From sequence record OK148440: DNA of 64,000 nt; one strand, given 5' to 3'. This document shows, one piece after another, positions 18,150 to 30,638 of the stretch (position 1 is its first letter; the number at the start of each line of letters is the position of its first letter). Under the pieces are notes generated by a model. It saw only the letters and a program-made list of their open reading frames with translations. It did not search any database and had not been told where the DNA came from. The stretch is from Escherichia phage MLP3. Both the position numbers and the translations under genes were made by a program.

Positions 18150-19385
18150 TTACAGAGTTACTGCTACTTCGCTACCCTCAACATTGACAGACTCTAACTT
18201 GCGAGGGTTATGAATCTGGACTGGATTGACCGGAACGTTCCAACCACTGCGGTAGAAGTTACGACCATCACAGAACAGGATGACATTGGCAGACATTGCA
18301 TTCGGTTGCAGGTTGTTGTGGACATGACGGATATTTGCAATCCAGTAGCCACGAGACAAAGTGTAGCCAGTAGGTGCATTACGAATAGTTTGAGTATTCA
18401 TCTGACCTTCCAGTTGCATTTCTTCAGGAACCACATCAACTGAATCAATCGGCTGTGCTACTTGTCCTTCCAGTGCAAAGTTTTCATCATCAGCACTTTC
18501 AATATCATCCACCAACTCACCGTCTCCATCTTCAATCGGAGTCTGGTAAACCACTTTATACTGAGGAGTATAGAGAGGGTTTTGAGCTTTAACAAACTCA
18601 AGAATGTTATGACGGTAGGTATCCAGAGTTGTACCAGTCAGGCCCGGTGCTGTATTAACTTCCAGTACCCACGCTTCTTGACCTTTGGTGATAATATCAA
18701 CTGCACCGAAATCCAGACCCATTGATTCAACAGCTTTCACTGCATTGATCAGAGAGGCGTCATTCGGAGCATCTGTGAAGGAGCTTGAGTAAACCCAGCC
18801 AGTGTGGTGATTACGAATATCTTCACGATAGTTAGGGTCTTCGCGATAACCATTGCGACGAATCTTCTTCTGAACATAGGTGATTACACCTTTGAACACA
18901 TGGACACGCCACTCACGACGTGGGCCTTGAATGCCTTTAGTGTACAGTTCAGCTCGACCAAGACCATCACCCGGTTCTACAACAACAATGCCCGAACCAG
19001 AGTGACCAGTCAGCTCATGGCGCTCATACACAATATTACCAGTGTTTGACCACTCTTGAGCAGTCTCTTGAGCATCTGTGTATTCCACAGTTTTAACACC
19101 TGCTTGGTCCATCACGCTGAAAGCACGACGTTTGTTCGCTGCCATATGTAAGGCTGCGGTACGGTTAAGGACGGTTGCAGAACCAAAGAATGATTCAGGA
19201 TAGCGACGGTTCCCGTAGTTAACAACCACATCACCTTCACGAGAACGCCAGCGGCTATTCTCTGAAAGAAGACCCATCACGTTAGCATTGATGCGTTCAT
19301 CACGGATAGTATCACTGATAGCAGATACTAGAGCGTTAACAGAATCAGACGGGCCATACGGAAGAACACGGATACGAGTAGTCAT
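18150..19385 (-). CDS. ATP-grasp family ligase
   Basis: ATP-grasp signature WVLEVNTAPGLTG and glycine-rich ELTGHSGSGIVVV. Confidence 0.7.
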   Translation of the reverse strand: MTTRIRVLPYGPSDSVNALVSAISDTIRDERINANVMGLLSENSRWRSREGDVVVNYGNRRYPESFFGSATVLNRTAALHMAANKRRAFSVMDQAGVKTVEYTDAQETAQEWSNTGNIVYERHELTGHSGSGIVVVEPGDGLGRAELYTKGIQGPRREWRVHVFKGVITYVQKKIRRNGYREDPNYREDIRNHHTGWVYSSSFTDAPNDASLINAVKAVESMGLDFGAVDIITKGQEAWVLEVNTAPGLTGTTLDTYRHNILEFVKAQNPLYTPQYKVVYQTPIEDGDGELVDDIESADDENFALEGQVAQPIDSVDVVPEEMQLEGQMNTQTIRNAPTGYTLSRGYWIANIRHVHNNLQPNAMSANVILFCDGRNFYRSGWNVPVNPVQIHNPRKLESVNVEGSEVAVTL

Positions 19386-19834: not shown

Positions 19835-21868
19835 TTAGTGTTTACCTTTACAGTAATCTGAATTACAGATCACCCTGTTTTCTTTGTTCAGTGAGCAAGT
19901 TTCTGCATCACGCCACGGAATTTGTTTATAACAAACTGCACAAAACCCAATTGAAGTCCAGAGGGCTTTTGTAAACTCAGCTGTTCGTTGTCCATCGTAA
20001 CTGACAACTGTTTTTCGGAGAGAGGTTGACTTTTCTGGAAATGTCTCCGCTTTCTCAGCGGGTACCTCCTTTGGGGCATTCTTTGGACCATAAACAGAGA
20101 TGGCATAAGTATCACCACCACGTTTTTCCAAATACGAATTAGGAACATCTGCAAGTGTGATGTCCCCTGAACGTTTTGCTGAGCTGACCATTACAATCAT
20201 ACGGCTAAGCATACGTTCATCAACACGAACAGCTACTTCAGGACGACGTGGGTTGGTTGTGTCCACTGCTTTAGTCCAAATATAACCCTCAGACAGCGTA
20301 ACATTCTTTACTTTGTCTTTGATTTCTTTGGAGCAGATATAACAAACATCTTCACCACGAAGTTTACTCATTTCGTTGTCAAACTCGAAATCAGTCTTGA
20401 CTTCACCACAGATAGCACATACACCCAAAGGCACATCTTCTTCCTCTTCAGAGGTTTTAGATAACGCTTCGAAGCATTCTGGATGCCAGTATGCCTGATA
20501 AGCAAACACAGCCTTACGAGCATCTTTCCAGTCAATGTGCTTATCACAACCACCACAGTCACCATGAGAGTGAGATTCCCAGAACTTACGAGTGACTTCT
20601 ACACCATTCTTAGTGATGAAGGAGTCCTCTGCATCAAAAGGGATATCATCATCAAAATCAGCAGTAGTGCTTTGAGGCTCCTTATCTGTAGCATCAACAA
20701 ACAGCCCTGAAGTTAGTACGAGGCGAATCATACTGTCCACTTCGGAGATACAAGCAATCGTCCCGCGATATACTACCTTTGGGTTTTCAAGAGCCTTAAG
20801 ATATTCATCTTTGGCTACGTTGTGAACATCCCCTTCGACATACTCTTGAGCTTTATCATCGTAGATGTAACCAACCATCTTACCACGATCTGTGTTGTTA
20901 TAAGCATGGAACTCGTGAGGAATAATATCCACACGACCATCACGACGATAAGGAAGACCACGATCGGCAGCCAGTTTGTTCTGGTCTTCAATCGCTTTAC
21001 GACGACGAATGTCTCCGCTTGTCACGCCGGGCTTGTCGTCTTTGTTTCCGTAAATGTCGCTTGTGCTGCTGCTTGATTTGTTTGTCTGTTGGTTCTGATA
21101 AAGAGAGGAGTTCGAGTAATAGCCGCCCCAGCGACTCGTTACCGTAAAAACCGGAAGCGTGTGCTCCACCTCTTGAACCAGAGTCATACGACTGTTAGAC
21201 ACATCAAAGATATACTCAGTTCCCACTTTACATTCGAAGTGGTCATTGATACGGTTCTTATGGGACTTAGAACGCTCTAAAATCCACATAAGCATAGCTT
21301 CTTCAGAAGCTCCAAACCAATCCAAACCACAGCGGGCTAGGTGGAAAGGACGCTCATCATTACGGATAATGTGAAGTGTGTTGTCTTTAGCATCATGCCA
21401 AATCAAAGTGAATGCACCATCCAGTTTTTGGATAGTCTCTGCTGCTCCAATGGTGTTAATTGAGTGGCAGATGTTTTCACTATCAACTTCGAAACGCTTA
21501 CTGTCAGGAAGGAGATCTTGATCTAACAGGGTTCCATTATGAACCAGAGTAATATCCCCGTGAGTAAATGGGTGAGCATTTCGAGCATTGACAGCCCCAC
21601 GAGTGGCATGTCGGCTGTGACCAACAATCCACGAAGGAGGAACTACGTAGTTCGTAAGCCCTTTGGTAATATTTGTATATTCTGTCTGGAGCATAAAAGC
21701 ATAAGAAGGAAGAGCTTCTTTATAAGAGAAGACTTGCTTTTCACCTTTACGCTGACCAAACACACCAGTTGAGTGCTGTCCACGGAAAACACCAGCATAC
21801 AGAAGTTGGTTGAAAATGTCCAAATCTGCTGAGGTCATGTTGCCGCCAGCTAATACGATACCACAAAT
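19835..21868 (-). CDS. class II (Ntn) glutamine amidotransferase fused to a Cys-rich C-terminal domain; probable AUU start
   Basis: GlmS-like HSRHATRG...NAHPF and LVHNGTL motifs; in-frame upstream codons ATT-TGT-GGT-ATC-GTA encode (I)CGIV matching the MCGIV N-terminus of GAT-II enzymes; AGGTGG SD 8 nt upstream of ATT; TAG two codons further upstream. Confidence 0.7.
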   Translation of the reverse strand: MCGIVLAGGNMTSADLDIFNQLLYAGVFRGQHSTGVFGQRKGEKQVFSYKEALPSYAFMLQTEYTNITKGLTNYVVPPSWIVGHSRHATRGAVNARNAHPFTHGDITLVHNGTLLDQDLLPDSKRFEVDSENICHSINTIGAAETIQKLDGAFTLIWHDAKDNTLHIIRNDERPFHLARCGLDWFGASEEAMLMWILERSKSHKNRINDHFECKVGTEYIFDVSNSRMTLVQEVEHTLPVFTVTSRWGGYYSNSSLYQNQQTNKSSSSTSDIYGNKDDKPGVTSGDIRRRKAIEDQNKLAADRGLPYRRDGRVDIIPHEFHAYNNTDRGKMVGYIYDDKAQEYVEGDVHNVAKDEYLKALENPKVVYRGTIACISEVDSMIRLVLTSGLFVDATDKEPQSTTADFDDDIPFDAEDSFITKNGVEVTRKFWESHSHGDCGGCDKHIDWKDARKAVFAYQAYWHPECFEALSKTSEEEEDVPLGVCAICGEVKTDFEFDNEMSKLRGEDVCYICSKEIKDKVKNVTLSEGYIWTKAVDTTNPRRPEVAVRVDERMLSRMIVMVSSAKRSGDITLADVPNSYLEKRGGDTYAISVYGPKNAPKEVPAEKAETFPEKSTSLRKTVVSYDGQRTAEFTKALWTSIGFCAVCYKQIPWRDAETCSLNKENRVICNSDYCKGKH

Positions 21869-21945
21869 TTTCTAATCCACCTGAAGGGTAAACCCTTTCA
21901 TCTAATTAACCTTTAAATGCGCCCTGTATAAGAGCGCCCGTTGTG

Positions 21946-23046
21946 TTACAGCAGTCGTTCTAATTGCATTTCCAGATGGTCTGGAATATAACCAGTGACG
22001 TTATCATCACTGCTACCTGATTCACGCATCAATGCAAACATGTGACGAATTTCACGAACCGTTGCGATTCGAGTGCTTTCAATCTGAGGGGTGTAGTAGG
22101 TCATGATCTCTTCGTAGACACTGTTGGCATTACCGCGCACATATCCCAAGAAACCATAGAAGTCATTCATATCACGTAAGTTGATAAGGACTTCACCATC
22201 AGGGCCAGTCTGTTGCACACGAACACGACCAACCAAAGTTACAGATTGCTCACGACAGAAGAGAATATCACGAGCAAGACGATACCCTTCAGTGAGATCA
22301 CTGTCTCTTGGAGTATAGTCTAGGGGTAGATGTTGAATCATAGGAGCGAAGCGCAGCTCATTCAACTTCTCAACATAAGCTTCATTGTCTAAATCTGCAT
22401 ATTCAACAGCAAGTTTCTTGAGAACCAAGAAGCGGTTGACCAGATTCAGAAGTTGGCTCTTTTTCCACTTCGGCTCTGAGATACGGAACTCAACAGAACC
22501 AAATTGAGATAGAGGCAAAAGATTAAGGGAGGTATATTTATCCCAGCTATTAACAAGAGAGTGGAAGAAAGCTTCCCCGTCTCGGTTGAACGCTGACGAA
22601 GCATTCATAACTTGTGCTTGAACGACAGCAAAAGCTGGACAGAAGTTGCTACGATAGCGATGGTATCCAGAACATTTGAACATCATCTTTTCATAGAACG
22701 TCCATCCAAGAATAACTTTCTTAAGGATATTACTATCAGCGTCACGCATATCCATATGAACGTGAGTGGAGCAGCGCCAAGTTCCCTCGGCTCCAGAATC
22801 CTGTACTGCTTCACTCAGATTGTTAATAGCACGAAGTAATTCTTCACCGTTGTAAGGTCGTGCACATACTAATTCACAACCATCACGAAGAGAGCCATCT
22901 TCAGTACAAACCCACATATCAGCGTCAATGTCAGTTGTACCTTCGACTTCTAACTCAATACCAACACCACACTGAAAAGCAATACTTGGATGCGGTTCAG
23001 ATAAGCGAGGGTTACGGTATCCAAAAACTTGTGCTACGGTTGTCAT
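21946..23046 (-). CDS. carboxylate-amine ligase (amidoligase / GCS2-like)
   Basis: GVGIELEVEG and STHVHMDM motifs resembling GCS2/YbdK-type carboxylate-amine ligases. Confidence 0.55.
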   Translation of the reverse strand: MTTVAQVFGYRNPRLSEPHPSIAFQCGVGIELEVEGTTDIDADMWVCTEDGSLRDGCELVCARPYNGEELLRAINNLSEAVQDSGAEGTWRCSTHVHMDMRDADSNILKKVILGWTFYEKMMFKCSGYHRYRSNFCPAFAVVQAQVMNASSAFNRDGEAFFHSLVNSWDKYTSLNLLPLSQFGSVEFRISEPKWKKSQLLNLVNRFLVLKKLAVEYADLDNEAYVEKLNELRFAPMIQHLPLDYTPRDSDLTEGYRLARDILFCREQSVTLVGRVRVQQTGPDGEVLINLRDMNDFYGFLGYVRGNANSVYEEIMTYYTPQIESTRIATVREIRHMFALMRESGSSDDNVTGYIPDHLEMQLERLL

Positions 23047-23678: not shown

Positions 23679-24530
23679 TTATACAATCTGGAGTTTAGAG
23701 GAGAATTTATCCGCTTCTTTAACATCGTTACTGTTGATGATGTTGTGAAGCTTTTCAATTGGAAGGCGAGAGTGAAGTGACATCAATACTTCCATATCAC
23801 AGCCTTGAACAACCTTATCAACTTGCTCATAAACAAACTTGCGGGTTGACTTCTCGCCAATCCAGAAGTTAGAAAGAGAACGATATTCAATACCGTAATC
23901 TTTGTAGCGAATGGCAGAAGCCTTTCCGTATAACTCTTTACGACGAGTATCTTTATCCATGATCACAGCTGGCAAGGACAGGAAGTAATCACACAACACA
24001 CCCAACATCATTTGAGTCTGACGACTAATTTCCAGCGTACCAGTGACGCCAAGGTGAACATGACCGCCAGCAGTACGCAGACCTTTGTCTGTCGCTACTG
24101 GAGATGGGTTTTTCTGACCAGTGAAGGCGTTGAAATCAGGAGTACAACCAAATACAAAGGCTGACGGATGGAAAGATTCCAGCTCTTCTGAAGTGAACAC
24201 ATGAGAGCTAATCCCAAGTGCTGCCTCCATGCCACGTTCATTGAGAACTTTGTTAGTCAGATCAATACCACGCTGAATGTTATCATTAAACGCTTCAAAC
24301 CCTTTCTGTGGGTTAATATCGAACTCGGCCAGAACGTTGTCTTCTTGAAGACGAACATCAGGGGCCAGATCAATTTTGTTGTCTTTAGAGCAGCCCAGCT
24401 TACCAGCCACAGAGGTGATAATACCAGAAGCAGTACGAACAAACATTTCAGGGTCAGAACCAATAAGGAAAGCACGCTTAGTCATTGTAATACTCCACGA
24501 GTTCATCAAAAAGGGAAACAACACGAGCAC
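23679..24530 (-). CDS. second amidoligase-like protein (tentative)
   Basis: FLIGSDPEMFV and GGHVHLGV motifs reminiscent of the E-x-E and HVH motifs of carboxylate-amine ligases. Confidence 0.4.
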   Translation of the reverse strand: MLVLFPFLMNSWSITMTKRAFLIGSDPEMFVRTASGIITSVAGKLGCSKDNKIDLAPDVRLQEDNVLAEFDINPQKGFEAFNDNIQRGIDLTNKVLNERGMEAALGISSHVFTSEELESFHPSAFVFGCTPDFNAFTGQKNPSPVATDKGLRTAGGHVHLGVTGTLEISRQTQMMLGVLCDYFLSLPAVIMDKDTRRKELYGKASAIRYKDYGIEYRSLSNFWIGEKSTRKFVYEQVDKVVQGCDMEVLMSLHSRLPIEKLHNIINSNDVKEADKFSSKLQIV

Positions 24531-30551: not shown

Positions 30552-30627
30552 TGTGGTGCACCCTACAGGACTCGAACCTGTAACCAACGACTTAGAAGGT
30601 CGCTGCTCTGTCCGTTGAGCTAAGGGT
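30552..30627 (-). tRNA. tRNA-Arg (anticodon UCU)
   Basis: 76-nt cloverleaf folded by hand: acceptor GCACCCT/AGGGTGC, D-stem GCTC/GAGC, anticodon stem GCGAC/GTCGT with loop CTTCTAA, T-arm ACAGG-TTCGAGT-CCTGT, encoded CCA. Confidence 0.9.
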
Positions 30628-30638
30628 GCTGAATTTGT

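Follow-up and report, generated by a model that had tools for sequence, protein, structure and literature searches.

A putative AUU start codon in the glutamine amidotransferase gene of phiEco32-like coliphages and its association with an upstream hairpin and a strong Shine-Dalgarno sequence

The glutamine amidotransferase gene of Escherichia phage MLP3, which is located on the minus strand of the 64,000-nucleotide stretch of DNA analyzed here (sequence record OK148440; hereafter, the window), is very probably translated from an AUU codon at 21868-21866, as judged from a comparison with its relatives. In that comparison, codons 2-11 were coding, ATT was conserved, no alternative start was present, and a hairpin and a strong Shine-Dalgarno (SD) sequence were tied to ATT and ATC starts. 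An original prediction, made from the sequence of the window alone, had proposed that the gene either initiates at AUU, so that the catalytic Cys is residue 2, or encodes an inactive enzyme.

Start site, its conservation and the encoded enzyme

The elements of the start site and the gene are as follows.

21866..21868, minus strand: ATT, the putative start codon (AUU read by fMet-tRNA), invariant in 17 phiEco32-like sequences and phage BUCT695
21863..21865, minus strand: TGT, codon of the predicted catalytic N-terminal nucleophile Cys, invariant column C2 of the alignment and residue 1 after Met removal
21877..21882, minus strand: SD AGGTGG, 8 nt before ATT
21869..21876, minus strand: spacer ATTAGAAA of 8 nt, which includes the in-frame TAG at 21872-21874 and gives the geometry stop + 3 nt + AUU
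21836..21838, minus strand: ATG at codon 11, the start in the track of open reading frames (ORFs) and in some GenBank records, replaced by CTG or CTC in loci L005-L007 and L010-L012, among them NJ01, phiEco32, EP335 and XT18
19835..21868, minus strand: glutamine amidotransferase coding sequence (CDS), 677 codons counted from ATT, with the stop codon at 19835-19837

The minus strand reads CCCTTC AGGTGG ATTAGAAA ATT TGT GGT ATC GTA TTA GCT GGC GGC AAC ATG ACC, and every element of the TAG-AAA-ATT-TGT...ATG reading that had been described for 21836-21882 was present at its coordinates, including the SD (21882-21877) 8 nt upstream of ATT, an arrangement not attributable to chance, as it was the same in 17/17 phiEco32-like sequences. 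One codon (AAA) lies between the in-frame TAG (21874-21872) and ATT, and no canonical start was present between this stop and the Cys codon, the nearest ATG being codon 11, in agreement with the claim that the stop two codons upstream rules out any other start. The mechanical ORF list begins the gene at this ATG (19835..21838, 667 aa) and, as had been pointed out, thereby yields a protein without the Cys nucleophile, the codon of which (21865-21863) lies upstream of the ATG. When translation is begun at ATT, the 677-codon frame ending at 19835 gives ICGIVLAGGNM... (ICGIVLAGGNMTSADLD...). A screen of the whole 64-kb window for an SD with ATT, ATC, ATA or CTG at the 5' edge of an ORF indicated the amidotransferase site as the only convincing case, and no other non-canonical start in the window was convincing by this screen.

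To describe the conservation of the site, we used phiEco32-like loci from GenBank isolates, IMG/VR and metagenomes, which comprised 17 distinct sequences. All 17 of them carried ATT-TGT and the identical upstream sequence, and ATT was without variation, though a single T-to-G change would give ATG. Codon 11 was CTG or CTC in the distant phiEco32-like phages (e.g., phiEco32, NJ01, XT18, KBNP1711 and EP335), indicating that the ATG there is not the start of the family. Aeromonas phage BUCT695, which belongs to another family (Grimontviridae) and shows 58% protein identity, carried ATT-TGT as well, and ATG-TGT was found at the homologous position in Proteus phage 3H10_20, Cronobacter phage GAP52, Salmonella 7-11-like phages, Aeromonas phage LAh_8, Pseudoalteromonas phage HP1 and Pantoea phage TacPo2. 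Thus, the alignment of homologs that had been suggested as a check gave the non-ATG codon in the phiEco32-like phages and BUCT695 and ATG in the outgroups. In the 17 sequences, the variable sites at codon positions 1/2/3 numbered 46/28/159 in the first 200 codons and 1/1/7 in codons 1-11, and the latter split points to translation of the CGIVLAGGN segment and its maintenance by purifying selection. Taken together, AUU occupies the sole possible start position, the non-canonical codon is conserved, and the SD stands at a functional distance.

These data bear on two other explanations. The first is a start at the codon-11 ATG, giving a protein that lacks Cys1, is glutaminase-dead and has some other role, as suggested by the output of gene finders, by several GenBank records and by a GGCGG located 4 nt before this ATG. 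This is highly improbable, however, because the ATG is CTG or CTC in distant phiEco32-like phages, codons 2-10 evolve as coding sequence, and the catalytic set is invariant, as described below; homologs consistently starting at the downstream ATG without CGIV, which the original prediction had named as evidence to the contrary, were thus not what was observed. The second is a sequencing error, with ATG as the true codon, or a decaying pseudogene, in favor of which the rarity of ATT starts can be raised and nothing more. ATT was found in every independently sequenced isolate and metagenome contig fetched, so that the sequencing error, also anticipated in the original prediction, can be excluded as far as sequence comparison goes. 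In addition, a blastn search with the region gave 98 phage records, all with at least 80% identity, the start itself being read only in the fetched loci; the 677-codon ORF is intact with substitutions mainly at third positions; and the SU10 protein, gp85, was found in infection proteomics by mass spectrometry (MS) with nine peptides (PMC4281155). The probability of an error or a pseudogene is, hence, negligible.

The N-terminal region of the protein (about aa 1-230) is a class II glutamine amidotransferase (GAT-II) domain, which scored 53.7 bits with Pfam GATase_6 (cut-off, 27) and 25.1 bits with Pfam GATase_7 (cut-off, 25), and a match to PHROG 4736 spans residues 2-514. In an alignment of 13 diverse N-terminal domains with 39-59% identity to the window protein, the residues C2, R29-G30, R86, N111-G112 and D129-S130 were invariant, and those other than C2 fall within motif stretches aligning to GlmS, the glutamine-site and oxyanion residues of which are Arg26, Arg73, Asn98-Gly99 and Asp123 in GlmS numbering. 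A single-sequence search of PDB with the N-terminal domain gave no match, and a profile search was needed; the profile from the 13-domain alignment matched the GAT domains of GlmS, PurF and AsnB with a best E of about 1e-11, and its positions 1-2, 'mC', fell on Met1-Cys2 of E. coli GlmS (4amv) in the full-length alignment. As far as can be judged from its sequence, all parts of the catalytic signature of an N-terminal-nucleophile (Ntn) amidotransferase, which requires Cys1, are present in the protein. A codon-11 start leaves the protein without this nucleophile, so that Cys comes first with the ATT start but not with the ATG start. Hence, of the two possibilities given in the original prediction, AUU initiation gained support from the conserved ATT and the coding nature of codons 1-11, whereas an inactive enzyme did not, the catalytic set being invariant.

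The phage enzyme resembles the GAT domains of GlmS, PurF and AsnB in having the Cys nucleophile as residue 1 after Met removal and the Arg, Asn-Gly and Asp residues of the glutamine site, but it differs from these enzymes in that it has no SIS, PRTase or synthetase domain and has a Cys-rich C-terminal region instead. This region of about 420 aa contains several CxxC pairs and showed a weak LIM-like match; it gave no recognizable family in Pfam and no significant match in PDB or NCBIfam. No SIS domain was found in the protein by the Pfam scan, and the NCBIfam glmS models scored far under their cut-offs (TIGR01135, 33.7 bits vs 418; NF001484, 41.4 bits vs 381), with only residues 2-194 being aligned. 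The name GlmS is, therefore, unjustified, and the product name 'L-glutamine-D-fructose-6-phosphate aminotransferase', which is given in many GenBank and PHROG entries, was rejected as an overcall based on the GAT-II match only.

The AUU start is not new as an annotation. The CDS already begins at ATT in phiEco32 RefSeq phi32_83 (ATT at locus position 2579 and the Cys codon at 2582), SU10_085 and Bas87_0079. It begins at the codon-11 ATG in SU7 and HC-25922, at codon 59 in EP335 and at codon 115 in XT18, with half of the GAT domain being lost in the latter two. In most of the 98 matching records, no feature is annotated over the start, and in most sampled GenBank records the gene is shortened by 10 to 114 codons or its N-terminal stretch is unannotated, and the catalytic Cys is consequently missing from the predicted protein where the annotation is shortened. 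No experiment on or discussion of this ATT start was found in the literature covered, the phiEco32 genome paper being outside that coverage, and nothing relevant was found there on ATT/AUU starts in phages or on hairpin-SD precedents. The gene is a further putative AUU-initiated gene. The hairpin-SD-AUU/AUC arrangement that recurs in several phage families is presented in the next section; no description of it was found in the literature.

Upstream hairpin and AUU/AUC starts across phage families

Three overlapping elements were recognized upstream of ATT.

21869..21915, minus strand: invariant 47-nt block TAAAGGTTAATTAG...GGATTAGAAA of the phiEco32-like set, single copy in the window
21882..21900, minus strand: hairpin UGAAAGGGUUUACCCUUCA with the core AAGGG/CCCTT and the loop TTTA, -6.1 kcal/mol by RNAfold, ending at the first SD base
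21872..21901, minus strand: in-frame mini-ORF of nine codons, ATG AAA GGG TTT ACC CTT CAG GTG GAT TAG (MKGFTLQVD*)

In the 17 sequences, the only variable site in -48..-1 sits at the 5' edge, just outside the 47-nt block, and the intergenic sequence 5' of the block is highly variable among phiEco32-like phages. The 47 invariant nucleotides compare with third codon positions that were variable at 159/200 codons (about 80%). The upstream element of BUCT695 differs by two changes, with TTA in place of TTT in the loop and GCG in place of GTG in the SD. No family of Rfam 15 was recognized in the start region (best scores of 18-22 bits vs gathering scores of 37-50), a scan of the intergenic region for sigma-70 promoters and intrinsic terminators gave nothing, and the published phiEco32 gp36 promoter consensus tAATGTAtA was absent from the intergenic region by eye. 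A conserved 23-mer was single-copy in the window and, hence, is not a repeated promoter motif.

The distribution of weak starts was then surveyed in an unbiased sample of 80 IMG/VR loci encoding the family, in which the codon before Cys was ATG in 66, ATT in 10 (5 of them phiEco32-like) and ATC in 2; of the remaining two loci, one had ATG-TGC-TGT, and the other lacked a Cys codon in register. With one exception, the interval from the upstream in-frame stop to the Cys codon contained no canonical start in the ATT/ATC loci. For reference, about 99.95% of the starts annotated in bacteria are ATG, GTG or TTG (bioRxiv 10.1101/063800). On a neighbor-joining tree of about 180 residues, the deep nodes of which are weak, ATT/ATC starts occurred at no fewer than eight places among ATG lineages. 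A scan of IMG/VR for GGAGG-N8-ATT-TGYGG gave 16 loci, 15 of which were true family members and 10 of which were new distinct sequences, and the same pattern with ATG gave only 8 loci, including 3 true GlmS genes. In 596 Gb of bacterial and archaeal genomes, nearly all matches to the ATT pattern were located within genes and attributable to chance. In metagenomes, a pattern scan gave two distant homologs (43% and 39% identity) that carried AGGAGG-ATTAGAAA-ATT-TGT and had no mini-ORF.

Among cultured phages, Klebsiella phage vB_KpnP_Klyazma (OP125547) carries the module AAAGCUAUAGGCUUU-C-GGAGG-AUAAUACU-AUC-UGU at locus position 201, and its CDS is annotated from codon 18. A near-identical module with AUU is present in the IMG/VR contig L166, and no hairpin was present in CVT22 (TTG) and Pecta (ATG), which belong to the same genus as Klyazma. 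Related modules thus interchange ATT and ATC, as in L166 vs Klyazma and L131 vs L142, and the persistence of ATT/ATC, together with an exchange in which T and C but never G take part, speaks for selection on the weak codon itself. As a separate observation, a bona fide GlmS of 607 residues in a Hyphomicrobiales metagenome-assembled genome (L183, JAPLOW010000103.1) carries AGGAGG-N8-ATT-TGC-GG at its N-terminus, the closest canonical codon in frame being a TTG 23 codons upstream, and this gene may possibly represent a cellular ATT start.

For the analysis of the upstream structure, 21 distinct ATT/ATC cases were available, consisting of 11 sequences of the survey set and the named isolates and the 10 sequences from the pattern scan. 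A hairpin of -5 kcal/mol or lower was present in nt -38..-12 in 16 of the 21, and one of -3.5 kcal/mol or lower in 18. These hairpins are built of stems of 5-7 bp with 3-5 nt in the loop, and no more than about 2 nt separate their ends from (A)GGAGG, which precedes the start by 8 nt in most of the cases. Their stem sequences differ from case to case (e.g., AAGGG/CCCUU, CCUGA/UCAGG, CCGGC/GCCGG, GUCGG/CCGAC and GACUC/GAGUC), indicating that the structure recurs and not the sequence. When 11 ATT/ATC sequences were compared with 57 ATG sequences, the median folding energy of -38..-12 was -6.1 vs 0.0 kcal/mol (Mann-Whitney p=1.4e-7), and the SD duplex was stronger for the ATT/ATC starts (p=0.0025). 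The eight ATG members whose intergenic space is 40 nt or longer were also without the hairpin (p=9e-5), and about 15% of the other genes of the same phage contigs reached -5 kcal/mol in this interval.

The two groups also differed in the median gap to the upstream gene, which was 1 nt for ATG starts and 31 nt for ATT/ATC starts. Among the IMG/VR loci L074-L153, the ATG-start members in most cases either overlap the upstream gene or directly follow it (gaps of -13, -1, 0 or 1 nt), an organization suggestive of translational coupling. The ribosome-binding site of the ATT/ATC-start members was observed to be free-standing, in a gap of at least about 30 nt.

The mini-ORF raises the question of re-initiation, a mechanism also proposed for thrS-infC, in which ribosomes terminating at its UAG would restart 3 nt further on at AUU and AUU would be a coupling device. 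The ATG of the mini-ORF (21901-21899) lies 27 nt further upstream of the TAG, a point that the original prediction had missed; it is preceded at 8 nt by a weak SD (AAGG), and the mini-ORF is in frame with the gene, invariant in phiEco32-like phages and present with two changes in BUCT695. Furthermore, the geometry of stop + 3 nt + AUU is that of infC, in which re-initiation and de novo initiation reportedly have about equal shares (PMC3592434). However, the other ATT/ATC-start lineages fetched have the hairpin, the SD and ATT or ATC and do not have the mini-ORF, the hairpin engages the U and G of the mini-ORF AUG in base pairs, and the SD before the mini-ORF is missing in BUCT695, for which reasons the mini-ORF is probably incidental. 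The two changes in BUCT695 are, moreover, both non-synonymous in the mini-ORF, and one of them (GTG to GCG) weakens the SD of the gene. Phage GAP52 carries TAGATGAAAGGAtttttagtATG, in which the counterpart of the mini-ORF ATG lies within the SD region of an ordinary ATG start; because the same string, TAGATGAAAGG, serves as this SD region, the mini-ORF ATG looks like a relic. Re-initiation is, therefore, unlikely to be the main route to AUU.

The mini-ORF could also provide the start itself if its TAG were read through and autocatalytic removal of the resulting 12-residue extension then exposed Cys1. Some class II GATases, such as Bacillus subtilis PurF, are known to undergo propeptide processing, and the frames of the mini-ORF and the gene coincide. 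B. subtilis PurF and glutamate synthase, which are processed in this manner, solve the same problem, i.e., the exposure of Cys1; the phage gene differs from such propeptide-processed Ntn enzymes in that an in-frame TAG splits the sole upstream ATG from the Cys codon, so that no propeptide can arise without readthrough. The window codes only for tRNA-Arg(tct) and for no suppressor tRNA, and readthrough in ordinary E. coli would be very inefficient. In addition, the other ATT/ATC lineages have no upstream start codon at all, and the ATG-start relatives have no propeptide. The production of the enzyme by this pathway is, hence, scarcely credible. Frameshifting and bypassing of the T4 gene 60 type were also considered and were rejected, as the mini-ORF and the gene are in one frame and no matching landing codon was seen nearby.

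Several points weigh against direct initiation at AUU as outlined here. The p-values for the hairpin association were computed without phylogenetic correction; 10 of the 21 cases were ascertained by a pattern in which the SD and its spacing are fixed and the hairpin is left free; and the count of lineages relies on a neighbor-joining tree of about 180 residues that is weak at depth. The in-frame mini-ORF ending 3 nt before AUU leaves room for a share of termination-reinitiation in the phiEco32-like clade. With regard to the SU10 protein, the mass listed for gp85 in Table 2 of PMC4281155 (63.8/63.7 kDa) is that of a model starting at Met115, whereas the ATT-start protein in GenBank is of 76 kDa. 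The database for the MS search thus lacked the first 114 residues, and proteomics built on this shortened model could not see the N-terminus.

If translation starts directly at AUU, the 30S subunit would bind the AGGUGG SD located 8 nt upstream, and the initiator fMet-tRNA would pair with AUU by Watson-Crick pairs at positions 1 and 2 and a mismatch at position 3. Deformylase and methionine aminopeptidase would then take off fMet to expose Cys1, as in GlmS, PurF and AsnB. Methionine aminopeptidase accepts Cys as the penultimate residue, so that fMet is expected to be removed, and the N-terminal peptide would be CGIVLAGGNMTSADLDIFNQLLYAGVFR without Met. From the comparisons above, we infer not only this initiation and Met removal but also a role of the hairpin and possible regulation: the hairpin would probably keep the SD single-stranded and thereby compensate for the weak codon, and it may stack on the helix of SD and anti-SD. 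A third-position mismatch of the start codon is proofread by IF3 (PMC5499595). AUU is a proven weak start in infC and pcnB, yielding 1-2% of AUG or 6-8 fold less than AUG (bioRxiv 10.1101/063800; PMC3592434) and overall roughly 1-15% of AUG (PMC3592434; bioRxiv 10.1101/063800; PMC5499595), and IF3, cold, nutrient limitation and ppGpp affect initiation at AUU particularly strongly. Therefore, the output of the amidotransferase gene would be low and possibly dependent on physiology, as in infC. More tentatively, the hairpin, the strong SD, the 8-nt spacer and AUU or AUC might constitute a distinct, selectable initiation module that makes expression dependent on start-codon proofreading and, hence, on the level of IF3, temperature, ppGpp and nutrient state. 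Such a module would have been kept since an ancient ancestor or would have arisen repeatedly in phage amidotransferase genes.

Gene neighborhood

The source phage belongs to the phiEco32-like coliphages within Gordonclarkvirinae (Kuravirus and allied genera). Over the amidotransferase gene, it shows 99.7% identity to vB_EcoP_HC-25922, followed by graded relatives down to about 74% nucleotide identity. The genes around the amidotransferase gene are as follows.

21946..23046, minus strand: Amidoligase_2 family gene, upstream neighbor (Pfam PF12224 and annotation in relatives)
23679..24530, minus strand: phiEco32-type COOH-NH2 ligase gene, further upstream (Pfam PF14395)
18150..19385, minus strand: putative RimK-like ATP-grasp gene, downstream (weak Pfam RimK match, 19.6 bits vs a cut-off of 21)

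The distance from the end of the Amidoligase_2 gene to ATT is 77 nt, and two small ORFs separate the amidotransferase gene from the RimK-like gene, which relatives annotate as ATP-grasp. GAT-II, Amidoligase_2, COOH-NH2_lig and ATP-grasp genes are thus co-located in the window, and this cluster is alike in gene set and order to genes 80-86 of phiEco32, without a difference in gene content. The function of the cluster has been predicted, according to Iyer et al. (2009) in the part quoted in PMC10580990, to be cell-wall or peptide modification.

Some further features of the window were also observed. A GC-rich hairpin (GCGCUCU/AGGGCGC; 21919-21937, minus strand) is located directly after the stop codon of the amidoligase gene; it has no U-run and is, therefore, not a classic terminator. 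At its position, phiEco32 has a different sequence that is equally paired (GUGCCUCU/AGGGGCAC), and in the same intergenic region of more distant phages with ATG starts, TTTAAA(T)G comes after a GC hairpin. The single tRNA gene in the window, for tRNA-Arg(tct), is located at 30554-30629 on the minus strand. Near 40 kb of the window, the GC skew turns from negative to positive, and this switch is consistent with two divergently oriented gene blocks.

Significance and comparison with infC and pcnB

The confirmed AUU starts in E. coli are two, infC and pcnB, and a family borne by phages would be the third. The conservation of AUU or AUC across several phage families and hosts, with cultured examples on E. 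coli, Aeromonas and Klebsiella, may provide a natural system for understanding how and why weak starts stay usable. If the proposed initiation module proves true, it would serve the phage as a translational sensor of host physiology, which is more than a ribosome-binding site of low output. It should also be considered that gene finders limited to ATG, GTG and TTG will repeat the truncation error and that many records misname the gene as GlmS in addition.

The phage gene differs from infC and pcnB in having a hairpin that abuts a strong SD, an arrangement that, to our knowledge, is not described for either of these genes. It resembles them in a conserved AUU with an upstream SD, the codon being AUU or AUC in infC homologs, and in a weak start codon that appears to be held by selection without drift to AUG (PMC3592434; PMC5499595; bioRxiv 10.1101/063800). 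The resemblance to infC extends to the stop codon located 3 nt before AUU, which is UAA GGU AUU in thrS-infC (PMC3592434) and UAG AAA AUU in the phage clade. In contrast to infC and pcnB, however, the phage gene is an early gene for a metabolic enzyme and not for a translation or RNA-processing factor, and autoregulation by its own product is, therefore, not to be expected.

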